A stretch of 64,000 nt of DNA from an uncultured Verrucomicrobiae bacterium (lineage in GTDB: Bacteria > Verrucomicrobiota > Verrucomicrobiia > Limisphaerales > Palsa-1400), in assembly GCA_963702845.1 (NCBI GenBank), contig OY969763.1:1696001-1760000 (forward strand). Direction: 5' to 3'. Under the pieces are notes generated by a model. That model saw nothing but the letters and a program-made list of their open reading frames with translations. It had not been told where the DNA came from and ran no database searches. Position numbers and translations under genes: made by a program. The first letter of the stretch is position 1, and every line of letters begins with the position of its first letter. Below are positions 8,375-45,597 of this stretch, one piece after another.

Positions 8375-8378
8375 ATTC

Positions 8379-12005: not shown

Positions 12006-12016
12006 AAACAAAGCAG

Positions 12017-21052: not shown

Positions 21053-21137
21053 AGAAAAAACTGAAGACTGAGGGACTGAGGACGGAGCGGCGGCGGGCCA
21101 CTGACTCGTGGATTGTAAACGCAGTCCCGACTCCTAG

Positions 21138-21416
21138 TTAGCTAACTTTGTCATGAAATTTATGGCGCACGATATGGATAATGCCGCACGACACCAAGCA
21201 AAGTGTCCATGCGAAACACAATCCGGATGCTCCAAGGCATACGTAAGCAAACCCATTTACTCGCCACTCGGCAGCACGCCGCTGAGCCTCGGTTCTTTCG
21301 ACGACCTTACCGTCAGGCGTAATATATCTTTTCGCGGGGGAGTATGGCGCAAGCGCCATGGTCGCAAAAAAGAACAGCCCGATCGAAAGAACCAACCATC
21401 TTAATGGGCGTTTCAT
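21138..21416 (-). CDS. Cassette-like membrane protein
   Basis: Two TM segments; partial attC at 21085-21143; family-2 module upstream. Confidence 0.6.
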   Translation of the reverse strand: MKRPLRWLVLSIGLFFFATMALAPYSPAKRYITPDGKVVERTEAQRRAAEWRVNGFAYVCLGASGLCFAWTLCLVSCGIIHIVRHKFHDKVS

Positions 21417-21432
21417 CGCGTTTTGTGTGGCT

Positions 21433-21481
21433 AGCGGTTAATATACGACGATTGTTCGCATAATTCTGATAGGCGGACAAG
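21433..21481 (-). repeat. attI-like module family 2
   Basis: CTTGTCCGCCTATCAGAATTATGCGAACAATCGTCGTATATTAACC-GCT|AGCC. Confidence 0.5.
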
Positions 21482-21587
21482 ACTGTTGTGCTGAGGCAGG
21501 CGCGAAAGTGCGGAGTCCAGAGGTTGCAAATCTCTGGCGTGGATGCGAGCCTCACTGGCCCCTGGAGGCGGCGAAGATGATGTAGCG

Positions 21588-21656
21588 GATGCGTTGCGGT
21601 ATTTGGTCGCGACGAAGTCGCGGGTGGTGGTTCAACGGAAGTTGAGGGGGTTGTGA
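21588..21656 (+). pseudogene. Second copy of terL 3' end
   Basis: Encodes DALRYLVATKSRVVVQRKLRGL*, same peptide as 20984-21052. Confidence 0.85.
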
Positions 21657-21706
21657 CCGACAAGGTTGAAGGATGAAGGCCAAAGGATGAAGTTTTGGAA
21701 TCGAGG

Positions 21707-21758
21707 CTTGTTCTCGTATCGAAAATGTGCGAACGGTTGTCAGATATAAACGTTAGGC
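21707..21758 (+). repeat. attI-like module family 2, plus strand
   Basis: CTTGTTCTCGTATCGAAAATGTGCGAACGGTTGTCAGATATAAAC-GTTAGGC ending 12 bp before the next ATG. Confidence 0.6.
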
Positions 21759-21770
21759 GTCTGCGACACC

Positions 21771-22142
21771 ATGAAAACATACGGAACACTACTCGCGATC
21801 TGCTGCGCCTCGGTGCTCACTCTGGTATCTGGTTGTGGGCAGAAGCCGAAAGATGCACTAGTGATGCAGCAGCAACAGGCCCAAGAAAGTATTGCGCAGT
21901 TTCGGCGAACTTTTGCAGAAAAGGATGCCACCGTCAAAGTGGGCACTACACTATCAAACGCTATAGTAGTCTTTGGGAAACCTATTGCCTTCACCAATGA
22001 TGACAGATCGGTGGAGGCGCACTTCGCGTTCATGCCTTACGGTTTATCCTATGTAAAATACGGCACTTTGACCAATGGGTTTACACTGCTTGTCTCAAAC
22101 GGCATTATCGTGCGAAAGGCTTATTCGTTCACAACGGACTGA
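21771..22142 (+). CDS. Cassette-like lipoprotein
   Basis: VSGC lipobox; degenerate attC at about 22146-22206. Confidence 0.7.
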   Translation: MKTYGTLLAICCASVLTLVSGCGQKPKDALVMQQQQAQESIAQFRRTFAEKDATVKVGTTLSNAIVVFGKPIAFTNDDRSVEAHFAFMPYGLSYVKYGTLTNGFTLLVSNGIIVRKAYSFTTD

Positions 22143-22324
22143 GTGCCGACTGATTGTGCACTACAGCAAATGACGGCGGGTTGTCGTTGAGTTTGGGTCG
22201 TTAAGGCGGAGTCCAGAGGTTGCAAATCTCTGGCGTGGAGGGTGCGAGCCGCACCGGCCACTGGAGGCGACGTGAGTCTCCAAAACGGATGGCTCGCGCC
22301 ACGGCGGACGCGAGGCAAAATGGG

Positions 22325-22714
22325 CTATCCGCGACTGGCCGCGCAGGTTTGCGGCTTGGCGTCGCGATCGGCGGTGTAGATGAGGGGTTGGCCGCAGGCG
22401 TGGCAGGTCTTCCAATAGGTGCCGGCGTCGCGATCTTTCTGACTGCGGCAATACCAACGGATGCCGCATTGGGCGTGTTCGTCTGGACTGCGGTATTTGT
22501 GCGCGCTGGCACGCTGGAAGCGGCGGTGGTTCTTGGCGATTTCTTCCTCTGCGTTGCGTTTCTCGCGCTGGATGTTGACGAGGATCTTCGCGGCCTGCTT
22601 GGCTTCGGTGCGAGCCGCACGTGCCTGCTGTTCGGCGGCGCGTTGGGCTTCGCACTTCGCGGCTTCGGCCGCAACGGCGACGGCTTCGAACGGCATGAGG
22701 GATTGTTGAGTCAT
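22325..22714 (-). CDS. Hypothetical protein with CxxC
   Basis: Coiled-coil N-terminus; CHACG. Confidence 0.45.
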   Translation of the reverse strand: MTQQSLMPFEAVAVAAEAAKCEAQRAAEQQARAARTEAKQAAKILVNIQREKRNAEEEIAKNHRRFQRASAHKYRSPDEHAQCGIRWYCRSQKDRDAGTYWKTCHACGQPLIYTADRDAKPQTCAASRG

Positions 22715-22759
22715 ACGCTGGAATGGCTCGCGCCCTGGGCGGACGCGAGCCAGGTGGGA

Positions 22760-23122
22760 CTATGCTGCTGCGGCTTCTACTTCGATGGGCGGATGTGCCT
22801 CATTAATGAGCTCAAGCTTTCGCTCGGCAGACATGACACGCGCGAGAGAGGAAGCGCGGCGGAAGTCGTAGACACCGTAAACGGTGTTGATTGGCTGGCC
22901 GTTATCGTCTCCGACATAGACTGACCAACGCTGCACGGCTGTGCCGGTTTTGTCTTTGGTTTGTTCCGGTCCGCGAAAGAAGACTGCTCTGAATGTCTGA
23001 CTACCTTGCTGTGCGATCCGGTTCATGAGCCCTGGCGTTTCTGTGTTTTGATTTTGTGTATTTGTTTTCATGTTCTTTTTTTTGACTGCTCTGCTGTGCG
23101 CTCTCGGACTGTCGCCCTTCAT
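22760..23122 (-). CDS. Hypothetical protein
   Basis: Plausible composition; true start probably MKTNTQ. Confidence 0.5.
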   Translation of the reverse strand: MKGDSPRAHSRAVKKKNMKTNTQNQNTETPGLMNRIAQQGSQTFRAVFFRGPEQTKDKTGTAVQRWSVYVGDDNGQPINTVYGVYDFRRASSLARVMSAERKLELINEAHPPIEVEAAAA

Positions 23123-23361
23123 CCGAAAGAGGCCGCGCGGGCAGGCGGGCAGTGGAAGTAGTCTTCAGAAGGCGCCACGTTGTCCCCTGACGAAAAGCGG
23201 CCCGGTGAGGGCGATGGTCGAGTGGCTAGCAGAGGGTTAAAAGGAACCAGACGGTGTCTGGACTCACTTTTTCTGGACTTAATTAGGGCTCAGGGGAATG
23301 CCAAGCGGCAACTGAGCGTGGCAACAAATCGCAGAAAGAGTGCGCAGCGAGGGCGGATTTC

Positions 23362-23643
23362 TTATCGTCCGGAAGCGATGGTGATCGCAGAGGCGACAAT
23401 CGCCGTGACGGCGAAGGCGAGAAAACACCATCCAATTACTCTAATCCGAGGGCCAACCAGCATTTGTTTGGGTTCGTGTTTGAGGCTGAACCAAAAGCAG
23501 ATGGGACCAAGCAAAGCAGGAACGAGTCTGTACCATCCGCCGACTGAAGTACAAACGAGGAAAAGGACAATTAGGACTAAGCTAAGAAGCGTCCATCGCT
23601 TGTTGGTCAGAGTCACAGGAACAGAATATCGTAACTGTTTCAA
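23362..23643 (-). CDS. Small membrane protein
   Basis: Three hydrophobic segments. Confidence 0.5.
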   Translation of the reverse strand: MKQLRYSVPVTLTNKRWTLLSLVLIVLFLVCTSVGGWYRLVPALLGPICFWFSLKHEPKQMLVGPRIRVIGWCFLAFAVTAIVASAITIASGR

Positions 23644-24546
23644 AGGTGAAAGCGTGAAAGCGGAGCGAGCGACTGCAGCTGAGTCTTAGCGACCCCGCCT
23701 GTTTGCGTTCACGCTGCGGAGTGAGGGCGTGGCGTGAAGAATGCAAAACGGATTGGCGCGCGCACTGCAGGCCGATGGCGGGGAAGATCGGCCGGCCGCA
23801 TGTGAGCGTGCCAAGCCGTTTTCCCTGCGTGGCATAAGGCAATATTGTGCGACAAATCCGGTTCGCATCAGTGGGTCTCGCGGGTCCCGCTGGTGCGATG
23901 CGTTATTTCGCAACGGATTTTCGTCACAATGTTTCTTATGTCTTAGCAGTGGTTCGCAAGGCAGACGCCCAGACGCGCAGGTGCGAGCCGCACCGGCCAA
24001 GCCGAGTATCGTAGCGTCTGCCGGTTTCTTCATGCCACGCTAGAACGGAGCTTAGCAATTCTCGCGGGGTCGCATCGTGCGGTCTCGCGGTGGTCGCGAT
24101 CTCTGACGTGTGCGCGGAAGTCGAGGATGTCGCCGGCGTTCGATGGGTGTTAGCACACGGCCACTTGGGCGAACGGTAAGGCGATACCGCAGGCTTTTGC
24201 GCAGAGGTCAGACCAAATTTGGGAGCGTGCGCATGACTGCGACGCGGCGGAGGCCAGCGAGCTTGCGAGCGTTTCCGAAGCTAGTTGCAGTGATGCGTGA
24301 GCTCTTGGGAAATGCTTTGCCAGTCTCCATAAATTTGAAACGTCGGAACGGAGCGGCAACGGAAGAGCTGATCGGCGGAGTTGTTCGTCGATTGGCTCTG
24401 GAGTGTTAGCGGAGTGGAGCGTTTTTAATTTGTGGAGTCTGGCTCTTCGGGGCTGCGCAAGGGTGAGGACAACGACGGTGCTTGCACGATGGAGCGACAT
24501 CGGCAGCGACAGTCGAGTCGATGGCGTCACTCTTGTGCGGCAGGGG

Positions 24547-25104
24547 CTACTTGTGAAAGGCAGGGTTTTTTAGTTTGATTCGGCCAAGAACATTGGACCG
24601 GGCCATATTGTTCTCATTGTAAAATGACATTTCCAATGTCTCTTCGTTCGTTGGGCATTCTGGCCAGGTGATGGCAACGATGCCCGGATGGTTCAGCCAT
24701 CGCCAAGCATGCAATTTCCAAGCGGCCATTATTGTGTAGGGCTCCCCGGGATCCTGGACGGCACACCATGTCCGGCGAGAGCGATCGGGCTCGTATGGAT
24801 TTTCGCTGAACCAAAACACTGCCTCACCCGGGCCCGTATGGAATGGAATCGTATTCGTTTGCATGAAGAGTCGTGGGAAAACTTTCGAGCTCAAGAGGCT
24901 CAGCTTTTGCAAGGCGCGCTTTGCTGGGTTTTGGTTCAGCCACATTTGACTGCGGACGTCGTATGTCGCCTCTATTAGTTTGAGCGTCGGTCCGTTAGGG
25001 ATCGTGATCGTTACCTGGTTAAGTTGAGTTAACCACAACAGAGCAGCGATTCCCACGGCGAGGGCGCAAATAGCCACCAGAGTAAATTGGGTTTTGCGCC
25101 GCAT
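24547..25104 (-). CDS. Membrane-anchored hypothetical protein
   Basis: N-terminal TM; long ORF. Confidence 0.6.
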   Translation of the reverse strand: MRRKTQFTLVAICALAVGIAALLWLTQLNQVTITIPNGPTLKLIEATYDVRSQMWLNQNPAKRALQKLSLLSSKVFPRLFMQTNTIPFHTGPGEAVFWFSENPYEPDRSRRTWCAVQDPGEPYTIMAAWKLHAWRWLNHPGIVAITWPECPTNEETLEMSFYNENNMARSNVLGRIKLKNPAFHK

Positions 25105-25812
25105 GAAAGGAGGTTGGCAGAACAGGGAAAGAGTTCAAGCCGGTGACTAGGTTTAGTCGGAGAACTGAGATTTGAAACGGCTAAGCAGTGAATCGCCTTA
25201 GCGATTCGACTGCGTGCCAGAGTAACCCAGCGTCGGGGTTGGTGGTGTCTTTGGGCGTCTTTGTCTTTGGGGCGAGCCGGTAGGCGAGGCGGTTGTCTTT
25301 ACGGGTTCGCGTTGGCGCGCGTTCCCTAGCGGGGGAGGGGGCGAAGTGTTGCTAGCTATTCCGAGCGCGCCTGCCCCCTCCCCCAGCAGCCCGCGTCGAC
25401 CGCGATTAGCGGAACTGCGACGTGGTCTGGGGGAGGGGGCGCGGGGGCGGGAGCGGGGAGCGCGCGAGGGGGGCAATGCGCTGGTGCGCGAGGGGGAAAA
25501 TGGGCGGGTGCCGCCGGCGTGCGGCGGGGAAATCAAGGCGGCGAGAGACGCTGGATTATATGAGCAAAGCGAACCGATGTTGTCTTTGGTGGCGCTGTCG
25601 GACGGTTGAGGCGTTTGGTTTGGGTGGAGGGCTAACTGATGCCGAAGGTTCGTACCAGCTTGAGCGACTGGCGGCTGCGCTGCTCTGTGCGCGCGAGTCG
25701 CGCCTCCCTATGTGGAAAGCAGCGCAGATGACAGGCGCGCAACTGACTTTGTCTTTGTGGGTCGTCGAGCTGCCAATAAGCGTTCGAATCACCGAGAGCG
25801 GACGCGAACGAT

Positions 25813-26382
25813 TCAGCTCACCGATGGTGGCGGCAAGATGTGCTCACGAGTTGTGCGCCAGAGCTGGCGAAGCACTGGCCACGCACCGCAGGCGACAATG
25901 GCAATACCCGACACTAGGATTACACCGGCCATGTGCAGCCGCCCCGGCTCCAAGGTGCGTCCGGCTGTGTCAAAGCCTCTATAAGCGATCAGACTGCCGG
26001 CCAGGATAGCTATCCGCTGAAAGAAAGCGAATCGACAGAGCACGAGGGCTATCAATGGGACGCAGGTGAAAATGAGAATGCTGGATATTTCCCAATAGGA
26101 TGGAACCCAGCAGGCGTCCATGTAGCCGCAAATAAGATAGGTCGTAAATAGAAACAGAAGAATCGATATTGCCCTCCGAGCAATACCCATGCGGGGAAGA
26201 TCACGCCATCCCAAGGCGAATGCTACAAAATAGGCGATTCCCCCGGAAACCATCTCAATCGATGCGAAGTCCTCCATACCGCGGTAAGCGGCACGAAAGA
26301 AGAGAGCCTGCGACCAAGTCCCAGCGGCAAAGACGAAAAGCGTGGTTGAGTGCCAGAGCCGCTGTTGTGCTTTAGATTGCAT
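25813..26382 (-). CDS. Cassette-borne multi-TM protein
   Basis: Follows attC 26393-26488; reads into a degenerate attC ending GTTCGCG near 25803. Confidence 0.6.
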   Translation of the reverse strand: MQSKAQQRLWHSTTLFVFAAGTWSQALFFRAAYRGMEDFASIEMVSGGIAYFVAFALGWRDLPRMGIARRAISILLFLFTTYLICGYMDACWVPSYWEISSILIFTCVPLIALVLCRFAFFQRIAILAGSLIAYRGFDTAGRTLEPGRLHMAGVILVSGIAIVACGAWPVLRQLWRTTREHILPPPSVS

Positions 26383-26392
26383 TCGTGTCCGC

Positions 26393-26488
26393 ATTTAACG
26401 ACAAGCTGAGCCGCGCCGGACCAAACACCGTGAACCGCGAAGCGGAACTGTCGGCGCAACCGGCGTTGGCTCCAGTGCTGTGTTAGGG
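26393..26488 (-). repeat. attC site
   Basis: CCCTAAC-ACAGC-ACTGGAGCC...GGCTCAG-CTTGTC-GTTAAAT. Confidence 0.85.
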
Positions 26489-26495
26489 CGCTTGG

Positions 26496-26909
26496 TCATT
26501 GTGGTGGCATCCTCTCAAGGATCTCGACACTCTTAACAATCCGACAAGCATCGTCAGAGTATGAAATTCTTGCTCGGTAATTCTGATAGCCACAACGTCG
26601 CGACGAGCCTTGCAGCCGATAAATCTTACCGCGTGGCTCATCGGATGCCTGCAAAGGTCCGACAATGTTGGAAAACATGATGTGACCGCAATTGTCGCCA
26701 TGCGCTTTCTCGTAATCCCTCATCGCCCGCTTGTAAAATTCCACGTTCTTCTGAAACTGCCTCTCCGCATCGTCCAAACTCGCAATCGCCTGTCCTGCCT
26801 CTGAATTGCGGGAAACTCCAATCTTGGTGACGCCCGACTGGCAGCCAGTGATAACAACTGCGGCGGCGCAAAATGAAAGTAAGATGAACTTGTGGTGCGT
26901 GTTTGACAT
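26496..26909 (-). CDS. Cassette-borne lipoprotein
   Basis: ITGC lipobox; starts after GTTAGGC. Confidence 0.7.
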   Translation of the reverse strand: MSNTHHKFILLSFCAAAVVITGCQSGVTKIGVSRNSEAGQAIASLDDAERQFQKNVEFYKRAMRDYEKAHGDNCGHIMFSNIVGPLQASDEPRGKIYRLQGSSRRCGYQNYRARISYSDDACRIVKSVEILERMPPQ

Positions 26910-26915
26910 CGGCCT

Positions 26916-27086
26916 AACTCTGATTATGCGACACGCTGTCGCGGTCATTTTGATATACGAACGGTTGGTTCATATTGGTTGAGGAGATTATTGTTATGCT
27001 GGCGCTGCGAATCAAGCGCAACACAACGCGCTCGCGAGCACGGCGACGACATGCCGGAGATCCGCGATTGGAAGTGGAGTGCGTAG
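26916..27086 (-). repeat. attI-like module family A, copy 5 (short xfp tail)
   Basis: Core; TTGATT-N17-AATAAT; REHGDDMPEIRDWKW fragment on + strand. Confidence 0.8.
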
Positions 27087-27158
27087 CGGCAGACCAACGA
27101 GGCGCTATTTATCAATTTAGCTCGGGAGGTTTCACACAGGCTCGCGACTTGTTAGGCG

Positions 27159-27566
27159 TCATTGGAATTGGCCCGGTCCAAGCAGATAACGATAAAAGCC
27201 TGGATACTCACTGCGCAGCAGCGGAATGACGACAGCCGGAGCGTGAGTCCCACAATTAAACCTCTTCCTTTTCACGTAAACAATGGCGGAACGTGAATCT
27301 GACGAATCCAACTCAATGCGACCGCCCGAGTCGCGCATGTCCTGACTCAAATGCTCTGGTTCGTAGTCCAACATCACGAGCACTCTGCCGTCAGCCAACG
27401 TAAGGCGATTGCTCGACACAGACGTAATGGCAATCGAATTGGTGAGCGGATCGTTGTTGAGCGGGATGGGACGATAAAAACTGACGCCGACCGTGACTGC
27501 GAGGAAGGTGAAGAGAGTTACGATACCGACTGCGCCCCAAACCGTAACTCTGACGATGTGTTTCAT
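27159..27566 (-). CDS. Cassette-like membrane-anchored protein
   Basis: Ends just before GCCTAAC; family-2 module upstream. Confidence 0.65.
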   Translation of the reverse strand: MKHIVRVTVWGAVGIVTLFTFLAVTVGVSFYRPIPLNNDPLTNSIAITSVSSNRLTLADGRVLVMLDYEPEHLSQDMRDSGGRIELDSSDSRSAIVYVKRKRFNCGTHAPAVVIPLLRSEYPGFYRYLLGPGQFQ

Positions 27567-27573
27567 TACGCGT

Positions 27574-27624
27574 AAGAATTAATCCGCGACAACAGTTCGC
27601 ATAGTTTTAATCCGCGAACAAGGG
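27574..27624 (-). repeat. attI-like module family 2
   Basis: CCTTGTTCGCGGATTAAAACTATGCGAACTGTTGTCGCGGATTAATT. Confidence 0.6.
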
Positions 27625-27729
27625 TTTTTAGGGTCGAGGTTCAAAGTTCCGACGTTTCGTGTGGATAACGCAGCGCAGATGACAGGCGCGCAACTGACTT
27701 TGTTATTTAACCACTAACGGTGTTTGTGG

Positions 27730-28371
27730 TTATTTCGCAAGGAGCGGTTTCAGTGCGGCCTCGATTACGGCAAGGTCACGAGGGGTGGCTTCAATATACA
27801 AGGAGTTGATACCGTCAGCATAAAAGTGCGTTGCTGAGGACCAATCGATGTTTATGGTTTTCAGCCATTTGTTCAGATTGTCGTTGAAAGCAACATCGCG
27901 ATGTTTGCCGCCTTCCGGGAGCGAAAACCTTTGCAACAGGTACCTGACCTGTCGAGTCGAAATTCTTTCCACTGCAGTTCGCCGCTACTCGCGCTGTTTC
28001 GTTGTGTGCGCATTGCAAGCCACTTTCCGGTCGCAGCTGATTTCGGGGGGTCCGTCGGTAAGATATCTTCAGGGGCGGAGTAATTTTTTATACTCGCGTT
28101 CTTCACGAGCTGCGGCCCTGTTTCTGTAGTTAGCTTCTTTCACCAAATCCAGATAATACCCGGCGGCTTTGTTCTTTGGGTCAAGTTTCAACGCGAGTTT
28201 AAGGGATTCCGCAGCATCCGCTAACTTGCCCATCTCGTATTGCTGTTTACCTTTTAGGACCAGCGCTCGAAGGGGTTTGTCTTGAATCGGATTAGCAATG
28301 GCATTGGTGATTTCGGCCCGTGCAAAAATCGAAGTGAGGAAGAAAATGACCGCGAAACTCCACGTTTTCAT
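27730..28371 (-). pseudogene. Split TPR/secretin-N-like gene fragments
   Basis: YEMGKLADAAESLKLALKLDPKNKAAGYYLDLV then LYIEATPRDLAVIEAAL in another frame. Confidence 0.4.
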
Positions 28372-28465
28372 TTTTCCAAGGGTGCCTGTCGCCGGCCGAA
28401 GAGTCAACGAGGCGGTTTGTTGGTGTGTCGCTGTCAGGTGCGCTTGTCGTCGATGTTGTTTTGTG

Positions 28466-28873
28466 TTAACGCAGCGTAGATGACCTCATAGGAAAAAGCC
28501 GCAACAATGCTAGCGAGCCGATTATGCTCGCTGCGACGCCCGCAGATGCGAACGCAACGAAGGGTAACGCCTCCCCGATTGAAAGACCGGCAAATAGGGG
28601 CAGAGCTACAACGACGGCGTAAGTCCCAATCACCGAGGGCAGCAAGTCAGACAGAGCCTCGGCGCTAAACCCCCTGCGCCCGATGAAACCTCCGCAAAAG
28701 AACATCACCAGAACGGTAAGCATAAAGGCTTCGGGAGCATGGTTACGGCCGTCCCTGATATTTCCCAGCGGTACGAAGGCCACAAAAATTAACCCTGCAG
28801 CGACAGCCGCCAGAATGGCGCCCGTAATGAATCCGAGCGCGTTTCTAAAGAATGATGGTTCGCGGATGTTCAC
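28466..28873 (-). CDS. Cassette-borne four-TM protein
   Basis: Starts after attC R' GTTAAGC. Confidence 0.7.
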   Translation of the reverse strand: MNIREPSFFRNALGFITGAILAAVAAGLIFVAFVPLGNIRDGRNHAPEAFMLTVLVMFFCGGFIGRRGFSAEALSDLLPSVIGTYAVVVALPLFAGLSIGEALPFVAFASAGVAASIIGSLALLRLFPMRSSTLR

Positions 28874-28879
28874 TGAATG

Positions 28880-28973
28880 GCTTAACGGCCCGGCTCAGGC
28901 AGGCCGGGACAACGGTGTGGGATTGCTAACAGACGCCCGATCCCGGCCTTGCCTGCAGCCCGGCTGGTTTTAC
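28880..28973 (-). repeat. attC site
   Basis: GTAAAAC-CAGCC-GGGCTGCAGGCAAGGCCGGGA...TCCCGGCCTGCCTGAGCC-GGGCC-GTTAAGC. Confidence 0.85.
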
Positions 28974-29318
28974 CTGTTTCTTGAACTCATGGCTGCTCGC
29001 TCGCGACACTGCCTCATATAGTTCACCGACCGTAAACTCTCTAACTCGGCCAGAACAAAGGCCCAAGAAATCCAAACCTTCCGGGTGAAACAAAAACTCG
29101 TCCGGTGCCAAGCCGAAGGTATCTCGGAATCCGCGCTCCTCAGAGGATAGCACTACATCGAACCGTGACTGGACCTCCTTTAAGATATCCACGCCGTCAT
29201 CCCCGGTAACACCCAAGTCCTTCTCGAACTTTGTCGATGGTACGATCGGAGTCTTGTCCGACAAGCCAGTGAACTCGCGGACGAACTTGACGAACTTTTC
29301 AAAGCTTGGTGCGCCCAT
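28926..29318 (-). CDS. Cassette-borne DUF1493-like protein
   Basis: DLGVTGDDGVDILKEVQSRFDV..FHPEG..FTVGELYEAV. Confidence 0.65.
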   Translation of the reverse strand: MGAPSFEKFVKFVREFTGLSDKTPIVPSTKFEKDLGVTGDDGVDILKEVQSRFDVVLSSEERGFRDTFGLAPDEFLFHPEGLDFLGLCSGRVREFTVGELYEAVSRASSHEFKKQVKPAGLQARPGSGVC

Positions 29319-29339
29319 CGATTCCTTTTCCTTCGGTAT

Positions 29340-29510
29340 AACTATGATTATGCGACGAGGTGTCGCGGTAATTTTGATATACGAACGGTTGGTTCATATT
29401 GGTTGAGGAGACTATTGTTCTGCTGCCGCTGGGAATCAAGTTTAACACAACGCGCTCGCGAGCACGGCGACGACATGCCGGAGATCCGCGATTGGAAATG
29501 GAGCGGGTGA
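29340..29510 (-). repeat. attI-like module family A, copy 6 (short xfp tail)
   Basis: Core, promoter-like segment and xfp fragment. Confidence 0.8.
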
Positions 29511-29516
29511 CCGCTT

Positions 29517-30203
29517 TTATGGGTAGCGCTTGAACACCGGATTGGTAGTCATGCCAAACTGGTTTATGATCGGGGGAATTTTTCCGCCGACGTGTTCCTG
29601 CGAGGCGATTTCATCCACCACAATATTTTGCACCGACGTGTTGGTATTCCCTTTTAGACATTCAAACACTTCCTTACGCTGTGTGTCTCCGCGAATCGAG
29701 AGGTAGATGATCGGTGCTATGTTATCTCGTTGGGCTGGCGAGTTTATCACACGTATCCACACGAAAGGATACTCGTCGTTAACTATTCTCTCAAAGGGAG
29801 ATGGCCCCATCCAGGCTCTTGGCACCAGAATATCCTTTTCGTGCAACCACGTTGGATGGTTCAGAAGCTCAGCAATGTTGCCCAGCGTCATTCCACTGTG
29901 GAAGTGACGAGCAAACATCTGTAGAACTGCGCGACTACGATGATCCACACTATATTGAGGATTGTTAGCGATGTCGTTCCAAAACTTCGGCGGCTCGTTT
30001 GTCAAACCAGAGTCCCGAAGCAATCCCAAAGCCGAAAGCAAGTTATTCGTACTCGCATGGACGTCTGCGATCTTCTTTAGAGCGGTGTGAAATTGCCGTT
30101 CCTGAATATGGGAGTTGGTGGTCGATTGTGCTTCTTGCGGTGTAACGCACCCGCCGAGCAGCAGCAATGCACCCGATAGCAGAACCTTAAGCGCGACTTT
30201 CAT
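29517..30203 (-). CDS. Lipoprotein
   Basis: LGGC lipobox; family-2 module directly upstream. Confidence 0.7.
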   Translation of the reverse strand: MKVALKVLLSGALLLLGGCVTPQEAQSTTNSHIQERQFHTALKKIADVHASTNNLLSALGLLRDSGLTNEPPKFWNDIANNPQYSVDHRSRAVLQMFARHFHSGMTLGNIAELLNHPTWLHEKDILVPRAWMGPSPFERIVNDEYPFVWIRVINSPAQRDNIAPIIYLSIRGDTQRKEVFECLKGNTNTSVQNIVVDEIASQEHVGGKIPPIINQFGMTTNPVFKRYP

Positions 30204-30248
30204 TAACTTGCGCCAACAGTTCGCATAGTTTTAATCCGCGAACAAGGG
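30204..30248 (-). repeat. attI-like module family 2
   Basis: Near-identical to 27574-27624. Confidence 0.6.
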
Positions 30249-30360
30249 GTTTTTGAGGTTCAAGGTTCAAACTTCCGGCGCTTCGTGTGGATAACGCAGC
30301 GCAGATGACAGGCGCGCAACTGACTTTGTCTTTAAGCAGCGTTGGAATTACCAAGAGCGG

Positions 30361-30457
30361 ACGCGAACGCTCAGCTCGCCGATGGCGGCCCCTGCTCGGC
30401 GCCCGATTTGTCGGACGGCGCCGTTGGGCAGCCACCCGGTGAAGCACCGGCTTCGAC
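30361..30457 (-). repeat. attC site (degenerate R'')
   Basis: GTCGAAG..CTTCACCG...GGGCCGCCATCGGCGAGCTGAGC-GTTCGCG. Confidence 0.6.
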
Positions 30458-30811
30458 ATCCTGTGAGGAAATTACACGTGGGGTGAAGGGCTTCCTCACC
30501 CACAACTCTCGCTCGGTAAAGGTAAACCTGTACTCAACCTTATCTCTGTCAACAATGCGCAGCCAGTTGTGGCCTGTCCGGCCCGTTGAGGGCATGTGGG
30601 AGACGAATCTGATCGACTCACCATCGTAGCCAACGTCGTAGATTATGAACTGCTCCCCATCGAAGGGGTCAATTCCCGTGACACGAAACTGTCCATCGGC
30701 GACTGAAATCGTGTATTCGGTGCGGGGATAATCGCAGGAATCGTCTGGGCACATGGCAACCCACGTCCCACAAAGCGGATGATCGGGCGTAACTGGATAA
30801 ACGTATGACAT
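30371..30811 (-). CDS. Cassette-borne hypothetical protein
   Basis: Between two attC sites; reads into its own attC. Confidence 0.65.
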   Translation of the reverse strand: MSYVYPVTPDHPLCGTWVAMCPDDSCDYPRTEYTISVADGQFRVTGIDPFDGEQFIIYDVGYDGESIRFVSHMPSTGRTGHNWLRIVDRDKVEYRFTFTERELWVRKPFTPRVISSQDVEAGASPGGCPTAPSDKSGAEQGPPSAS

Positions 30812-30819
30812 GGGACTAT

Positions 30820-30918
30820 GCCGAACGCTGGAACTCACACACGTCGGACCAAACGACGCTGACCGCGAAGCGGAACTGAGAGTGCCATCCGGCGTTGTGT
30901 GCAGTGATTTTGTTAGAC
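30820..30918 (-). repeat. attC site
   Basis: GTCTAAC-AAAAT-CACTGCACACAACG...CGTGTGTGAGT-TCCAGC-GTTCGGC. Confidence 0.85.
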
Positions 30919-31119
30919 ATCGTTTTTCTTTCGTCCAAGCAGTGCATGAACAATGGTGAAAATTATCCAGGCACACGCAATAGTAATGGCTGGTCCGTAA
31001 AACATTTCGGATGTCGAAAGGCCATTAACCAAATCCAGAGAGCGCAACAGTGCGAGCATCCCGACGCCAACAGCGTAAAGAACAAGCGAAAGCGGTAAAG
31101 CGATCTTCAAAAGTTTCAT
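30913..31119 (-). CDS. Cassette-borne two-TM protein
   Basis: Stop codon within R''. Confidence 0.65.
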   Translation of the reverse strand: MKLLKIALPLSLVLYAVGVGMLALLRSLDLVNGLSTSEMFYGPAITIACAWIIFTIVHALLGRKKNDV

Positions 31120-31134
31120 ACGCTCACGAGGGCT

Positions 31135-31305
31135 AACAATGATTATGCGACGGGGTGTCGCGGTAATTTTGATATACGAACGGTTGGTTCATATTGGTTG
31201 AGCAGACTATTGTTCTGCTTCCGCTGCGAATCAAGCGTAACAGAACGCGCTCGCGAGCACGGCGACGACATGCCGGAGATCCGCGATTGGAAGTGGAGCG
31301 GGTAG
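31135..31305 (-). repeat. attI-like module family A, copy 7 (short xfp tail)
   Basis: Core, promoter-like segment and xfp fragment. Confidence 0.8.
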
Positions 31306-31399
31306 CTCCACACGAACAAGGCGCAATCTATCAATTTAGCTCGGGAGGTTTCACACAGGCTCGCGACTTGTTAGGCGTCAAAGCACCAGACATAAGTTC

Positions 31400-31849
31400 T
31401 TACTCATCTACACAGCGAACTGCTTCAACGACCTCTATTCGGAAACAGCGAAATGACATCCTTACACCCGCACCTGGCTCAAAACTCACAATAAGATATG
31501 GAGGCAATCTCTCACCGTTTGTGAACGTGCCGCGCTCTTGAGTGTTGATGGACAACTCAACTATCTGGTTGATGTGGTCAAAGCGATCCATCTTAAAATC
31601 ATCTACATCGTGAAAGCGCAATGTGACCAGAACATCGTGGCCAGAATGTGTAGCTCCTCGTTGCGTGGCTCCCAATACTCGAAGCTTCGCTGTCACGACA
31701 GGAAAGACATTGCGGTCATCCCAATCGCCCGGCTTCACGTCGCCGCGCCACAAGTGCAAGTCAAAAATCTCCGCATCATGGAATGACGGCCATTCGCCAA
31801 AAAACGCCGTCAGCTTTTGGCTATCTTGAACAACTGATTGGACGTGCAT
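31400..31849 (-). CDS. Cassette-borne Imm50-like immunity protein
   Basis: FFGEWPSFHDAEI...VTLRFHDV...FDHINQI. Confidence 0.7.
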   Translation of the reverse strand: MHVQSVVQDSQKLTAFFGEWPSFHDAEIFDLHLWRGDVKPGDWDDRNVFPVVTAKLRVLGATQRGATHSGHDVLVTLRFHDVDDFKMDRFDHINQIVELSINTQERGTFTNGERLPPYLIVSFEPGAGVRMSFRCFRIEVVEAVRCVDE

Positions 31850-31858
31850 GGGATTGGT

Positions 31859-31951
31859 GCTTAACAACTCAGCTCAGCGGCGGCGGGCCACTGACTCGAG
31901 GATTGTAAACGCAGCGTCCTCCCGCCGTCGGCTGGGGCGCTCTGGTTAGGC
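31859..31951 (-). repeat. attC site
   Basis: GCCTAAC-CAGAG-CGCCCCAGCCGACGGCGGG...CCCGCCGCCGCTGAGC-TGAGTT-GTTAAGC. Confidence 0.88.
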
Positions 31952-32209
31952 TGCGGTGGTCGTATGTTTTTCATCTGATGTCTTCTGTCTCTTTCTGCGC
32001 ACCAGGTAATGAATCAGAAAGCAAGTTGCTGACAAAATAATCACAATCAAGCCGTAACCAAGTGAACCGAGCATGGTGCGAAATGCAACAAATCCTGCCG
32101 TTTCGCTGTCAGCGTGAGGCGAGAAGTCAAAAAACGCGCGAAAGCGAGTGATTGCATGAGTGATAATCACCGCAGACAAAACCAACAGACTGAAAGCTAA
32201 AGTTTTCAT
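31946..32209 (-). CDS. Cassette-borne two-TM protein
   Basis: GTTAGGC start matches R'' GCCTAAC exactly. Confidence 0.7.
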   Translation of the reverse strand: MKTLAFSLLVLSAVIITHAITRFRAFFDFSPHADSETAGFVAFRTMLGSLGYGLIVIILSATCFLIHYLVRRKRQKTSDEKHTTTAA

Positions 32210-32296
32210 GCGCTCGGTGCAGCCTAACTATGATTATGCGACTGGGTGTCGCGGTGATTTTGATATACGAACGGTTGGTTCATATTGGTTGAGCAG

Positions 32297-32325
32297 ACTA
32301 TTGTTCTGCTGCCGCTGCGAATCAA
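32297..32325 (-). promoter_or_regulatory. Pc-like sigma70 promoter candidate (also in copies 5-7, 9, 10)
   Basis: TTGATT-N17-AATAGT pointing into the cassette. Confidence 0.55.
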
Positions 32326-32338
32326 GCGCAACAAAACG

Positions 32339-32497
32339 GATCTCTTCGCCGACGTGATCGACCGCCTGCCGCAACTGGGCGCGCGGGCCGCCTACGCCAA
32401 ACAGGCCATCCAAAACAAACTCATGAAACACAAACATTACATCCGCGAGCACGGCGACGACATGCCGGAGATCCGCGATTGGAAGTGGAGCGCGTAG
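32339..32497 (+). pseudogene. xfp: 3' fragment of phosphoketolase gene
   Basis: ADVIDRLPQLGARAAYAKQAIQNKLMKHKHYIREHGDDMPEIRDWKW* resembles the XFP C-terminus. Confidence 0.8.
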
Positions 32498-32514
32498 GGA
32501 AAGTGCGAAGCAGC

Positions 32515-32606
32515 GTCTAACGATCCAAGCTTAGCGACCCGGCCCACGGGACGCGTGGATGGCAACCGGAGCGCACCGGACGGGTTCGCTGCGTGCATGG
32601 TTAGGC
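32515..32606 (-). repeat. attC site
   Basis: GCCTAAC-CATGC-ACGCAGCGAACCCG...CGGGTCGCTAAGC-TTGGATC-GTTAGAC. Confidence 0.8.
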
Positions 32607-32867
32607 CGCGTCCTCTTCAAGCTCCTGAATAAATCTCCGCATTACCTGCACGCCACCGTCGCCACAGTAATTGCCCGGTTGTTCAGGCGGAAATTCAGCG
32701 TCGAGCAAGTCACACCGCTCGCGGATTGCTTCCAAGCGCGGGTCATCGAAAGTGTCATGAACAAAACTATCCCACTCCCACGGGGCTCCTGTGCCGTCCA
32801 AGAATCGCACCAAAACGCCGCGAACATCTTTGGCTGTCTTCTTCCGGCGATGACCGAATAGTTTCAT
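32601..32867 (-). CDS. Cassette-borne small acidic protein (CdiI-like, tentative)
   Basis: FLDGTGAPWEWDSFV...DPRLEAIRERC. Confidence 0.65.
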   Translation of the reverse strand: MKLFGHRRKKTAKDVRGVLVRFLDGTGAPWEWDSFVHDTFDDPRLEAIRERCDLLDAEFPPEQPGNYCGDGGVQVMRRFIQELEEDAA

Positions 32868-32883
32868 GGCGTGTGCACGGCCT

Positions 32884-33134
32884 AGCTTTGATTATGCGAC
32901 GGGGTGTCGCGGTCATTTTGAAATACGAACGGTTGGTTCATATTGGTTGAGGAGACTATTGTTCTGCTGCCGCTGCGAATCAAGCGCAACTGGGCGCGCG
33001 GGCCGCCTACGCCAAACAGGCCATCCAAAACAAACTCACGGAACACAAACATTACATCCGCGAGCACGGCGACGACATGCCGGAGATCCGTGATTGGAAA
33101 TGGAGCGCGTAGGGAAAGTGCGAAGCAGTCTAAC
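32884..33134 (-). repeat. attI-like module family A, copy 9 (medium xfp tail; core GCT)
   Basis: Same GTTAGAC boundary as copy 8. Confidence 0.8.
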
Positions 33135-33153
33135 GCGGCGTCGTCCCACCGTC

Positions 33154-34810
33154 AGATGTCATGAAGGGTTGAGTCGCAGCCCCACACGGGGTCACGATGT
33201 TTTTGAAAATGAAAACATATTTACTCAAACCCCACATGACAGTCCCAACCCTAACCAGCGTGCCTGCCGCGGGCAAGCTGGCAAACGTGCCGCCGCGCCA
33301 GCCTTTGCCACGTCCTGTGCTGCTTGCCGGCAAACCGGCTCTCAAGCTTGGCCTGGACGTGCATCTGGAGTTCATCATGGCGGTAGCCCAACGTGATCAC
33401 GCTTCACCCCAAGCGCCACGCAAATTCAGCCGTGAGCAACTCATCGCCCAGGTTCAGAAGTGGACCAGCGAAGGCCTGCAAGTTTTCTGCGTGCAGGAAA
33501 GCTGTGGGTTCGGCTTCGTGCTCCATCGCGAACTGGTCGCCGCCGGTGCGCAAAGTTTTTTGATCACGCCGATTGCCCTCAACGGCCAGCGCAAGACCGA
33601 CAAGCTGGACGCGCGCGCTCTTTGCCTGCGCCTCTCTCGCTGGGTTGATGGCAACATCAACGAACTTGCACCCATCCGCATTCCTTCGGACAAAGAGCAG
33701 CGCCAGCGCGAAGGCACGCGACGAAGACAGTTCCTCAACAAAGCCATTCGCATGCTCGCCAATCGCGGTCACGGCCAAGCCGCCGAATACAGCCACGTCA
33801 AACTGCCCCATCGCTGGTGGGGAGCGCGCAACTGGAAAAAACTTTCCACCCTCGATCCGTGGCTGCTCAGTGTTCTCGAAAAGCTCCGCGAGGTCCTCGT
33901 CGCCATGGAGACACAACGGCAGGAACTGGAAGAGGAACTGATTGCGCGGGTCAAAGAACAACCACGGCCCAAGGGCCTTGGCGAGATCACTCTTGTGACA
34001 CTGGAAGGCGAAGTGTGCGACTGGCAGCGCTTCCACAATCGCAAACAGATTGGCAGCTACACCGGATGTTGCCCGGGCGAACACAGTTCAGGAGGCAAAC
34101 GGCGCGTCGGCAGCATCGATCGCATGGGCAACGGACGAGTCAGAGCGATCCTGGTGGAAGCGGTCTGGCGTTTTCTGATGTGGCAACCGGGGTGGAAGGC
34201 CGCACTTAAAATGAAAACCAAACTTGCCGCCGGCACGGCCATGAAGAAGAAAACTGTCATTGCCCTTGCCCGGCAACTGGCCGTGGACCTCTGGCGCTGG
34301 CGAACCGGCCGTTGCACCATGGCAGACCTCGGCTGGGTCGGCGTGTGAACCACATTTAATTTTTTCGTGAGTAGAACCTCCAGAGTTAAGAGCGTGAAAC
34401 AATTTGCGATCGGGCGAGTCCAGTCCGTAGCTTCAGCTGGTGAACCTTGCGTTCATCCGTCCGTTAGAAGGGGCGGACTCCCCGGTCGCCGCAGTCAGGC
34501 AAGTAAGACACAGTGGGCGTTGAGTCTTATCTCAACTGTCCGGATAGGAGCTGGTGCGGGACAAACTCCCGACACACAAAACGCGGCGACACCGATGCAG
34601 CAAACTTCACGCAACCTGCTTTGAGAGAAATAAGAAAGGAACTTTGAAGAGGAACAGATAAGCGGAGACTCGAGAAGAACAACAGGTGCGGATTGAACCA
34701 ATGTCCAACCGCCTGCCGCGCGCGACTGCGCTTCGTTCCACTGCGCTCCGCGCGATCAACCCCAAAAAAACTATCATCGACGCACACTACGTATTGACAA
34801 ACCTCATAGG
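33154..34810 (+). mobile_element. IS110-family, IS1111-type insertion sequence inserted in an attC
   Basis: Flanks rejoin to CCCACCGTC|CGCTGGAGCGCTCTGGTTAG; imperfect subterminal IRs 7 and 3 bp from the ends; about 460-bp noncoding right end. Confidence 0.85.
33197..34348 (+). CDS. IS110-family DEDD transposase/recombinase
   Basis: LGLDVH; QESCGFG; KTDKLDA; GCCPGEHSSGG; ALARQL. Confidence 0.93.
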   Translation: MFLKMKTYLLKPHMTVPTLTSVPAAGKLANVPPRQPLPRPVLLAGKPALKLGLDVHLEFIMAVAQRDHASPQAPRKFSREQLIAQVQKWTSEGLQVFCVQESCGFGFVLHRELVAAGAQSFLITPIALNGQRKTDKLDARALCLRLSRWVDGNINELAPIRIPSDKEQRQREGTRRRQFLNKAIRMLANRGHGQAAEYSHVKLPHRWWGARNWKKLSTLDPWLLSVLEKLREVLVAMETQRQELEEELIARVKEQPRPKGLGEITLVTLEGEVCDWQRFHNRKQIGSYTGCCPGEHSSGGKRRVGSIDRMGNGRVRAILVEAVWRFLMWQPGWKAALKMKTKLAAGTAMKKKTVIALARQLAVDLWRWRTGRCTMADLGWVGV

Positions 34811-34826
34811 CGCTGGAGCGCTCTGG

Positions 34827-35165
34827 TTAGTTTTCATCATCTGGATACTGCTTTTGCAAAAAGCAGCAGGTCAGTTGAGCAAGTACAACAGTAATACCTG
34901 CATATACCCAGCCAAATATCACCAGAGCAAAAACCGCCGGGCCTTCGGGGACCCATGACCAAACCTCGCGGGCCAGGTTGCGACTGAATGCAGCGCAAAT
35001 AAGGGGGATGCCGAGAGACCAGAGAGCAAATGTCACAATCAGAAGACCCCAACACAGAAAAAAGGCCCACTTTACAGAACCGCCACGAACGATACGCCGG
35101 AACGGGATTATGCCAGCGATGATGGCTGGTGCGTAAGCGAAAATGATCTGAGCAACAGTCTTCAT
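34827..35165 (-). CDS. Cassette-borne three-TM protein
   Basis: Stop within R'' AACTAAC; cassette start ATTAGTT. Confidence 0.7.
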   Translation of the reverse strand: MKTVAQIIFAYAPAIIAGIIPFRRIVRGGSVKWAFFLCWGLLIVTFALWSLGIPLICAAFSRNLAREVWSWVPEGPAVFALVIFGWVYAGITVVLAQLTCCFLQKQYPDDEN

Positions 35166-35179
35166 CAGCTACGACAACT

Positions 35180-35408
35180 AATAATGATTATGCGACGGGG
35201 TGTCGCGGTCATTTTGATATACGAACGGTTGGTTCATATTGGTTGAGGAGACTATTGTTCTGCTGCCGCTGCGAATCAAGCGCAACTGGGCGCGCGGGCC
35301 GCCTACGCCAAACAGGCCATCCAAAACAAACTCATGGAACACAAACATTACATCCGCGAGCACGGCGACGACATGCCGGAGATCCGCGATTGGAAGTGGA
35401 GTGCATAG
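35180..35408 (-). repeat. attI-like module family A, copy 10 (medium xfp tail; core ATT)
   Basis: Near-identical to copy 9. Confidence 0.8.
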
Positions 35409-35807
35409 CGCAGGTTTGTATGCGCGGGCATCATCGAGAGCAGAGGCAGGTGACGGGAACCAACGGCCAAAACTGGTTAGCGGAACAGGTACCGACAGAG
35501 GTTGATTACCCATCGGTTTCTTGGACCCGGATGACGTTCAAGACGCCACGGGTCGAAGGCACGCTCGATATTGTTTCAGCGAGAGCTCACGTGTTGATTC
35601 ATTAGCGATGCAGAATCAAAGTTCAACGACCTCAGTCGCGGGCGGAAAATGTGGCGGGTTCAAAAAAGCACGGGTGGGCATTCCGGAATCGGTATCCGGA
35701 GCTTGGGCGCGACGTGTCCTTCCTTCGTTCGTTTGTACAGATCCCTCCGTTCAATTGCACAGCGGCTCCGTACCTGTTGTACGGCGGCTCTGTAAGATAT
35801 CCCTACC

Positions 35808-36095
35808 TTATGTTCTCTTAAGGAATGAAACCTGATTCGCCTTCGCGATGTCGCCGGTTCGGAGTCGTGTAATCAACTTCGTCATTTCTGAATCTTGAAG
35901 CTCGCGGTATCCGGGGTCCTTATCTCTGATCTCCTCGTCGGCAATGTAATGATGCAAGTCGGCAAACAGATCCTTAAGTTCAGGCATCTTTAACGCCGCG
36001 AGATTATGGATCTCATCGCAAGCATCCTGACCTCCAATCTCGCCTTTCTGTAACCGGGATAGGAAGAGGCAAAGTTGTTCTATCTCGTGATTCAT
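35808..36095 (-). CDS. Small acidic protein (immunity-like, tentative)
   Basis: LHHYIADEEIRDKDPGYRELQ; family-2 module upstream. Confidence 0.6.
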   Translation of the reverse strand: MNHEIEQLCLFLSRLQKGEIGGQDACDEIHNLAALKMPELKDLFADLHHYIADEEIRDKDPGYRELQDSEMTKLITRLRTGDIAKANQVSFLKRT

Positions 36096-36106
36096 CGTTT
36101 ATACCC

Positions 36107-36157
36107 AGCAATTAATCTGCGCCAACAGTTCGCATATTTTTAATCGGCGAACAAGGG
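36107..36157 (-). repeat. attI-like module family 2
   Basis: CCTTGTTCGCCGATTAAAAATATGCGAACTGTTGGCGCAGATTAATT-GCT. Confidence 0.6.
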
Positions 36158-36452
36158 TTTTAGCGCAGGTTTGGTGGCACTTGCTGAAGATGGTTGCTAA
36201 CTCCTTCGTCGCGCCTTAGGCAAAGTGAATCTGCGATTGAGGCGGGTTACCCAGGGTAGAGCCCCGCATCCCTCCTCAACACCTGGGCTGGATGGTTCAA
36301 CCCGCTTTGGGGTTGTCTGAAACCCTGTCAAAACTTTTTTTCGCCAAAAATTTTCGCGTTGGTTCGCGAAGAGTGTACGGAGATTCGCGTTGGTTCGTGT
36401 CGTCTAGTGGCCTTCAAAAGCTTTCTGAAAAACGTGTGCTACAAATGCGCAC

Positions 36453-39062: not shown

Positions 39063-39068
39063 GAACAA

Positions 39069-39992: not shown

Positions 39993-40181
39993 GTTCGTTC
40001 CATTCCGGGATTTTCATATTGGCTTCGCAAGAGCGGACTAGCGTCAACAACATTTTGCGAATTTATTGTGCGCGTCTGTGCGCGGCAAAGCGCGTACGTG
40101 CGCGCAGGTGCGTGACGAAATTTGGCTGAATCAGCCCTCCCGTAAAATTTCTAAAAACCCGTGCTAAAACTGCATCCAGTT

Positions 40182-45450: not shown

Positions 45451-45473
45451 TTCAACTCCCGCCGCCTCCACCA
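45451..45473 (+). other. att site: duplicated 3' end of tmRNA (ssrA) or a tRNA
   Basis: TTCAACTCCCGCCGCCTCCACCA (T-loop to CCA) without the 5' T-stem, at the phage/host boundary. Confidence 0.8.
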
Positions 45474-45597
45474 TTTTCTGCGGTGGCAATTATTGCCGCG
45501 GCGTAGTTCCGCTCCACGGAACGAAGGCGGGCTAAACTTTTGAATTGTCCTGCACATCATGTGCGGCAATCTTCGCCCCATGCTAAAATTCTGGTGC

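Follow-up and report, generated by a model that had tools for sequence, protein, structure and literature searches.

What lies between the terminase and portal genes of a virus-like island in an uncultured Verrucomicrobiae bacterium, and where did it come from? The window considered here is a stretch of 64,000 nucleotides (GenBank assembly GCA_963702845.1, contig OY969763.1, positions 1,696,001 to 1,760,000). In it the gene for the terminase large subunit (terL) ends at 21052 and the portal gene starts at 36453, 15.4 kb further on. An original prediction, made from the DNA letters of the window, took the small genes in this interval to be integron cassettes and the surrounding element to be a phage or satellite that acts as their vehicle. 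The reading we favour, and consider likely, is that the terL-portal gap is an accessory-gene hot spot of an island family, and that in this genome it has been colonised by an integron cassette array without an integrase (CALIN).

An integron cassette array between terL and portal

Matches to PHROG and Pfam families (Table 1) bear out the placement of both boundary genes. The predicted content of about 20 small genes, mostly antisense to the phage genes, also agrees with our reading of the open reading frames (ORFs), which gives about 22 on the minus strand and two or three on the plus strand; gene count and orientation bias are both derived from ORFs only. Among the plus-strand ORFs are a lipoprotein-like one at 21771-22142 and the transposase gene of an insertion sequence (IS) at 33197-34348.

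The interval has two parts, a native accessory region at 21.05-25.8 kb and the cassette array at 25.8-36.1 kb. They differ in what they share with the rest of the genome, which holds five related islands with terL and portal, called A, W (the one in the window), C, D and E, plus two further copies of terL. Over the first part, 21.05 to about 25.8 kb, the window is 70-90% identical in nucleotide sequence to the sister islands and to G002, a genome of the same genus; conservation at the protein level (tblastn) is patchy, and searches of Pfam, PHROG, PADLOC and NCBIfam placed none of the ORFs of this part in a family. From 25.8 to 36.1 kb, matches to the other islands consist of short repeated modules only, and the stretches between modules are single-copy.

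The case for integron cassettes is carried by their attC recombination sites. We trained a covariance model, R1, on ten attC sites linked to the integron integrase IntI in five other genomes, none of them the present one. The training sites are hairpins of 93-108 nt beside the relatives' IntI genes, with GCCTAAC-like and GTTAGGC-like boxes at their ends, and their consensus fold has 24 pairs, ten of which show compensatory changes. A scan of the window with filters off returned eight matches at E <= 1.3e-3, every one on the minus strand: five in the interval and three in a second array to its left. The best plus-strand match in the window had an E value of 0.22. The several attC sites of the original prediction are therefore borne out by an independently trained model, with five in the interval at E 4.9e-12 to 2.3e-5.

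These sites have the architecture expected of attC, with inverted outer boxes (RYYYAAC...GTTRRRY) and an imperfect inner helix containing unpaired bases. The site at 32515-32606 has its sequence plan and most of its letters in common with IntI-linked attC sites of genomes G039 and G029. For the site at 26393-26488 the likeness is to the IntI-linked sites of G013 and G018, two genomes from the family of the present one. Both sites fold end to end, with energies modestly better than those of shuffled sequences (z -2.0 and -1.1, respectively). A CALIN is recognised by two or more close, co-oriented attC sites with a co-oriented ORF upstream of each. Here five R1 matches (E <= 2.3e-5) lie within 6.2 kb, a sixth site is split by an IS, and each attC has such an ORF. 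A plain scan for RYYYAAC...GTTRRRY gave 12 pairs per strand, few and ambiguous, and the covariance model was used in its place; a scan for palindrome patterns gave chance-level results only.

The left array (window 3307-8900) sits between the gene for a WYL-domain regulator (2135-3304) and the replication genes of the island, a layout also seen in island D.

Table 1. Coordinates of features in the window (island letters and G002 as in the text; E values and bit scores labelled R1 are from the attC covariance model)
Feature	Position	Strand	Evidence or remark
terS candidate, upstream of terL	19056-19661		PHROG phrog_6299, E 1.8e-18
terL (terminase large subunit)	19658-21052	+	PHROG phrog_2, E 2e-25; weak Pfam Terminase_6N
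Native accessory region of island family	21053-25800	-	patchily conserved; matched in nucleotide sequence by islands A, C, D, E and by G002
ORFs of native region	21138-21416, 22325-22714, 22760-23122, 23686-24033, 24150-24530, 24547-25104	-	
Second copy of terL 3' end, 93 nt (repeat D7)	21564-21656	+	83% identical to 20960-21052
Cassette array without integrase (CALIN)	25813-36161	-	15 cassette ORFs, attC sites, D1, D4 and D5 modules
attC	26393-26488	-	R1 29.0 bits, E 2.3e-5; end-to-end hairpin
attC	28880-28973	-	R1 38.8 bits, E 5.6e-8; overlaps 3' end of ORF 28926-29318
attC	30820-30918	-	R1 34.4 bits, E 8.5e-7
attC	31859-31951	-	R1 40.8 bits, E 1.7e-8; stop codon of ORF 31946-32209 inside first box GCCTAAC
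attC	32515-32606	-	R1 54.1 bits, E 4.9e-12; stop codon of ORF 32601-32867 inside GCCTAAC
Sixth attC, split by IS	33128-34832	-	halves about 33128-33153 and 34809-34832; flank comparison of six IS copies
IS110/IS1111-family insertion sequence	33154-34808	+	transposase 33197-34348; Pfam Transposase_20 4.6e-16, weak DEDD_Tnp_IS110
D1, short form	26894-27088	-	
D1, short form	29318-29505	-	
D1, short form	31113-31305	-	
D1, long form	32204-32497	-	core 32204-32332 and antisense xfp fossil 32347-32497 (XFP_C 3.7e-11)
D1, xfp fossil with internal deletion	32862-33112	-	
D1, same deletion form as 32862	35158-35410	-	
D4 (52 nt)	36110-36161	-	immediately upstream of minus-strand ORF 35808-36095, beside portal
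D4, other copies in interval	21436-21487, 27577-27628, 30201-30252		
D5 (repeat of 41-50 nt)	25660-25742, 27660-27710, 30286-30333		imperfect palindrome at 25660-25742
Cassette ORF with Imm50 match	31400-31849	-	Pfam PF15594, 1.8e-10, 41.4 bits (cut-off 27.1)
Portal protein	36453-38069	+	PHROG phrog_145, E 2.6e-110; Pfam DUF4055 1e-39
Scaffold	40161-40988		PHROG
Major head protein	41019-42029		PHROG
Ad1 head-tail adaptor	43602-44186		PHROG
Right attachment repeat	45451-45474	+	24-bp copy of tmRNA gene 3' end
Second cassette array of island (left array)	3307-7412	-	three attC; partial D1 copies at about 4014, 4671, 7913, 8842
attC, left array	3307-3397	-	R1 E 1.3e-3
attC, left array	6861-6951	-	R1 E 3.7e-7
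attC, left array	7308-7412	-	R1 E 2.9e-5

A repeated module that ends at an integron core

Eleven attI-like modules had been counted in the interval. The repeats themselves are real, six copies of a module D1 and four of a module D4 making ten, and what found no support is the attI label, for want of homology to the relatives' attI regions and of an integrase in the genome. D1, which occurs 29 times genome-wide, has a core of 110 nt and reaches 290 nt in its long form. Every copy immediately precedes a same-strand ORF, whose start codon follows 5-25 nt past the module's end. Over the 29 copies, column identity is at least 0.8 up to "...CATAGTTAG" and about 0.3 immediately after. Conservation ends at a GTTAG core, which is the position of the integron crossover, and the consensus of all copies ends in GTTAGGC. 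A same-strand attC then follows within 250-700 nt in 21 of the 29 copies (18 model matches and three IS-split sites) and, counting the IS-split site, in six of six in the interval; the attC list behind this pairing is incomplete outside the loci scanned with filters off.

The short forms of D1 are deletion derivatives with 3-6 nt of microhomology at their joints, and identical deletion variants precede different cassettes in different arrays. On the plus strand the module carries a terminator-like hairpin. Among 40 relatives D1 was not found in any, and only the part of it that derives from the gene xfp matches their real xfp genes. A motif upstream of the portal gene, GTTGGTTCR, was considered as a link between D1 and the control of the head genes and then dropped, seven of its nine matches being the D1 copies themselves.

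D4, which lacks an integron core, immediately precedes minus-strand ORFs, among them the one beside the portal in each of the five islands. Homology between D1 and D4 was rejected as not significant (153 of 2000 shuffles scored equally well), and D4 gave chance matches only against the relatives' attI regions. The third module, D5, may be an attC remnant, to go by its sequence. D5 is present in G002's island too, and it has words in common with the central part of the attC at 31859-31951.

An xfp fossil and the probable origin of the cassettes

Long forms of D1 hold, in antisense, the last ~50 codons (~150 nt) of an xfp phosphoketolase gene (Pfam XFP_C, 3.7e-11). The genome has a single full-length xfp, at 2198664-2201090, and the last attC of a chromosomal array (2198555-2198645) lies 19 nt past its stop codon; the last cassette there is preceded by D1. 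The fossil in the window is 98.7% identical to the tail of the genome's own xfp, as against only 83% for the xfp of a same-genus relative, and it therefore arose in this lineage and spread with D1 to about ten loci. The unit of xfp fossil, D1, ORF and attC repeats head to tail, and the joint falls at the boundary of xfp and D1, not at attC; we found no core sequence common to the two parental sites at that joint. From these sequence relationships we infer that the cassettes probably came from the host's own chromosomal arrays, with exchange between those arrays and the islands.

The xfp gene adjoins a mixed cassette region (locus L023, genome 2183025-2201090), whose far side holds two genes of a different phage, one for a terminase (Terminase_6N/6C) and one that is Mu Gp27-like.

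An insertion sequence that targets attC

The IS in the array belongs to a group of six copies in the genome, four of which sit inside attC sites at an identical position, while a fifth has the right half of an attC only and the remaining copy (95% identical) lies elsewhere, outside any attC. A DEDD/IS110 transposase followed by a long non-coding part, here of ~460 nt downstream of the transposase gene, and a fixed insertion point in attC sites mark it as an IS1111-type element. A passage of PMC11187229, citing Post and Hall 2009 and Tetu and Holmes 2008, names ISKpn4 and ISPst6 as IS1111-family elements known to target attC. The IS of the window is like these two in its DEDD-type transposase, its long non-coding downstream part and its one fixed position in attC. 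It is a different IS, likened to them by description rather than sequence, and one of its six copies is not in an attC. Its downstream non-coding part is a place where a guide RNA matching attC might be sought.

Cassette cargo

The ORF with the Imm50 match is the only cassette above a family cut-off, and one further ORF has a sub-threshold TPR match in Pfam; PADLOC, NCBIfam and PHROG searches with 24-26 cargo proteins gave nothing credible. By a crude hydropathy rule, eight of the 15 cassette ORFs encode an N-terminal hydrophobic segment, several membrane spans or a lipobox, and a ninth (28069-28371), unflagged by the rule, has a signal-like N-terminus by eye. One could speculate that envelope proteins together with an immunity-type protein fit roles in exclusion or interbacterial defence. 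Acquired interbacterial-defence arrays, attributed to Ross et al. in 2019, reportedly consist mainly of immunity genes beside a recombinase. An immunity island of that kind (rAID-like) was rejected here, with only one of the 15 ORFs in an immunity family and no linked recombinase. One cassette ORF, 29517-30203, has a second genomic copy at 1975 kb, which comprises the coding part with no attC, so that the cassette ends are not definable from it.

The terL-portal gap in sister islands and relatives

The gap between terL and portal measures 5.9 kb in island A, 15.4 kb in W, 5.4 kb in C, 11.2 kb in D and 4.2 kb in E. Five attC sites lie in the gap of W, one and a weaker one in D, and one in E; C has one weak match of 44 nt and A has none. 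All of the sites are antisense to terL. In islands D and E the modules are the same and the cassettes between them different.

Relatives of the portal protein occur in 48 of the 301 genomes of the order. Among 37 stretches fetched from the order we found 17 terL-portal pairs with gaps of 1.15-7.4 kb and no attC in 477 kb (default filters), which recovered all eight attC matches of the window when run on it as a positive control. Eleven IMG/VR contigs gave nine pairs with gaps of 3.3-6.5 kb and no attC in 156 kb, and G002 gave one pair with a gap of 3.7 kb and no attC (filters off). The two genes had been taken to be normally adjacent, which is not the case in this family: all 27 pairs outside the genome are separated, by 1.15-7.4 kb. 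By a crude ORF measure the relatives' gaps are mostly antisense (13 of 18). Their genes include two N6/N4 DNA methylases, an Mrr nuclease, an ArdC protein with a metallopeptidase, a PLD nuclease, a HEPN protein, SRAP, an IrrE/HTH pair and four DUF6573 proteins. Judged from these sequences, the gap is a general accessory-gene hot spot of the island family. Comparison of the pairs thus gave two answers on cassettes, which are present in three of the five islands within the genome (W, D and E) and in none of the 27 gaps outside it.

Near the start of the gap in the window, the duplicate of the terL tail begins 604 nt downstream of the original, and related metagenome contigs, with weak support, link position 20946 directly to 21569. 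These contigs are short, stem from related organisms and come from four DNA sequencing runs covering small shares of the stretch; the joints between modules that they also show are not relied on. A 34-nt hairpin repeat (D12) at 21510-21543 and 22206-22239 is present beside the terL ends of other islands too; it was considered as a tRNA fragment and dropped, a tRNA scan of the window having found none. Together the duplicate and the 34-nt repeat look like the scar of a recombination, insertion or module exchange just past terL.

Integrase-less arrays in the genome and the order

A search of the whole genome found no IntI, the best TIGR02249 score being 86 bits against a cut-off of 265, and tblastn of the genome with the IntI proteins of two relatives gave Xer-like matches only, at 27-33% identity. 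The intI, attI and Pc that stand beside the array in a complete integron are missing here. The arrays themselves are numerous. At E <= 0.01, R1 detected at least 38 attC sites in the genome, clustered in about ten arrays, a lower bound obtained by scoring 150 of 4469 candidates. Outside the five islands there are two dense, classical-looking arrays, with eight attC matches (L025, genome 1597000-1601600) and seven (L026, genome 175500-180100), each in ~4.5 kb. Counting the present genome and 40 relatives, attC sites of R1 type (E <= 1e-5) occur in 29 of 41 genomes and IntI above the cut-off in seven; arrays without an integrase are therefore common in the order.

The carrier island

The island is about 55.4 kb long (genome 1686067-1741474), comprising positions 1-45474 of the window and 9.9 kb to its left. 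A 24-bp direct repeat bounds it, and the left copy, 9.9 kb ahead of the window, is formed by the 3' end of the tmRNA gene (genome position 1686067). Next to this end is a gene for a tyrosine recombinase; where such recombinases occur near the islands, they are located at the att ends. Island D has a 24-bp repeat of its own. Replication genes encode PD-(D/E)XK nucleases, a PIF1-type helicase and a primase-polymerase/D5 protein. The names of the head and packaging genes are those of PHROG, with which Pfam agrees more weakly. No tail, baseplate, fibre or lysis gene was found among the 40 island proteins scanned with PHROG and the 81 scanned with Pfam, searches that can miss small or novel genes. 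The gene content is that of a capsid-forming satellite (packaging and head genes, integrase, att sites and no tail) and differs from that of a tailed temperate phage, and because no tail genes were found we regard the carrier as more satellite-like than phage-like.

Two paralogous HEAT-repeat genes occupy positions 38070-39992, between portal and scaffold. Portal and scaffold are adjacent in sister islands A and D, and the HEAT-repeat pair is another insertion in the head operon. In the part of the island to the left of the window (L022), just inside the integrase end, are a gene for a Zeta-toxin-like kinase (8288-8875) and one for an AAA ATPase of 757 aa with a pentapeptide repeat (10139-12409); both may be defence or addiction genes.

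Discussion

If the terL-portal hot spot was colonised by a cassette array, either or both of two routes could have served the transfer: IntI-type recombination at G|TT cores, at a time when the enzyme was available, and homologous recombination between modules that the arrays have in common. Lacking a common Pc promoter and oriented against the head operon, the cassettes may receive promoters or leaders from D1 and D4. The array would be static today without IntI, and the island, if packaged, could bring cassettes into hosts able to use them through an IntI of their own.

Several observations weigh against this account. A number of cassettes in the interval have no detectable attC, and two candidates for decayed sites, at 27092-27157 (which does not fold, z +0.9) and 31310-31375, each reached an R1 E value of 1.5 and were set aside as doubtful remnants. 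An attC detectable by R1, which could miss types unlike those of this order, was found in none of the 27 gaps outside the genome, and cassettes are thus not a trait of the island family. A recombinase for the cassettes is absent from the genome, which leaves mobility of the array putative. As to D1, the perfect GTTRRRY is kept in only two of the six interval copies; the module is not an attC (no R1 match at E <= 10), its last 73 nt fold as two local hairpins instead of one end-to-end hairpin, and against the relatives' attI regions it gave chance-level matches of 10-16 nt only. A real attI adjoins intI, which D1 does not, the genome having none. Because D1 has no similarity to attI, the sole argument for a crossover site is the position of its GTTAG boundary. 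A sigma-70 scan for promoters in the modules found nine sites where 8.1 were expected, and flagged a single D1 copy.

How far the island is specialised for cassettes is a separate matter. One could suppose an adapted vehicle, in which D1 copies are working attI-like sites that combine docking with promoter function, IntI acts in trans and packaging spreads the library. The sharp end of D1 conservation at the crossover core, the regularity of the D1-ORF-attC unit, the same deletion variants before different cassettes in different arrays, and the intact att repeats and head genes of the island would all be expected. That D1 occurs in none of the 40 relatives and is unlike their real attI regions, that the genome has no IntI and that the relatives' gaps are free of cassettes makes such an adaptation doubtful. 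Carried to its end, the idea would make D1 a portable docking-and-expression site in 29 copies, a "poly-attI" integron whose library is carried by head-only satellites and unloaded by a resident IntI, and we regard this too as unlikely. The head-to-tail units, joined at the xfp/D1 boundary rather than at attC, the microhomologies at the D1 deletions and the restriction of D1 to this genome could instead point to D1-bounded units moved by other means (an unknown recombinase, homologous recombination or duplication), a separate mechanism that reuses old attC-bearing genes. The arrays, however, have no linked candidate recombinase, the tyrosine recombinases sitting at the att ends of the islands, and the two parental sites have no core sequence in common, so we give this explanation little credence. 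D4 and D5 lack integron features, D4 is also present in islands A and C without a strong attC match, and D1 has a terminator-like hairpin on the plus strand, all of which could suit small phage genes in an ordinary block, unrelated to integrons, in which promoters and terminators are repeated. Five matches to an independent attC model, with E values down to 5e-12 and full strand consistency, and the presence of an attC-targeting IS make that scarcely credible.

We therefore return to an integrase-less array in an accessory hot spot and ask how it compares with systems already described. The main vehicles of integron cassettes are taken to be plasmids and transposons, and arrays borne by phages have rarely been published. 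In the parts of their study drawn on here, Qi, Rajabal, Ghaly, Tetu and Gillings (2023) report 17 CALINs, three integrons and one In0 in 10,705 phage genomes, and temperate Vibrio phages that captured pieces of host chromosomal integrons (PMC9892861). CALINs in phages are thus already published, and the present case belongs with them. It matches what those parts describe in having an attC-bounded array without IntI in a virus-like element, with cargo mostly of no known function. It differs from their description in its Verrucomicrobiota host and its carrier without tail genes, in its location at a terL-portal hot spot common to the whole island family and its recurrence across three sister islands of a single genome, and in the repeated D1 module that ends in a crossover core and precedes most cassettes.

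With sedentary chromosomal arrays the interval has in common many cassettes without an assigned function, an attC type specific to a clade, and a stop codon at or in the first attC box. Sedentary chromosomal integrons have arrays with homogeneous attC sites. In contrast to them, there is no IntI, attI or Pc here, the arrays are scattered over at least ten loci, and several attC sites are decayed or missing. The carrier resembles the capsid-forming satellites known as cf-PICIs, which are roughly 10-15 kb long, in its integrase, replication genes, terS, terL, portal, scaffold, capsid and adaptor, with no tail found and several copies per genome. Unlike them it is ~55 kb long and has large accessory regions and no known helper phage. 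T4-type phages are said to have "mobile regulatory cassettes" made of a promoter and a stem-loop, as Arbiol et al. reportedly described in 2010; these are similar in that short repeated modules flank small variable genes in a hyperplastic region of the phage. They are different in that the modules here end in an integron core and the genes carry true attC sites.

The proposal that a phage or satellite serves as a vehicle for cassettes can be upheld in part. The space between terL and portal of a satellite-like, capsid-encoding integrative element that looks intact does contain real cassettes; a family-wide role in carrying them does not follow, with no attC in the 27 gaps of relatives and island cassettes in W, D and E of one genome only. 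This absence of cassettes from relatives elsewhere is one half of what the prediction itself had named as counting against it. The carrier is a plausible but unproven vehicle of cassettes.

Within the island family, the gap between terL and portal emerges as a general accessory hot spot. The fossil of the xfp tail is a traceable record of where cassettes originated. D1, if functional, would show that cassettes can be expressed and exchanged without the classical platform of a single attI and Pc. For cassettes of host chromosomal arrays, settling in the terL-portal hot spot of head-only, possibly packaged islands would offer a possible route of transfer.

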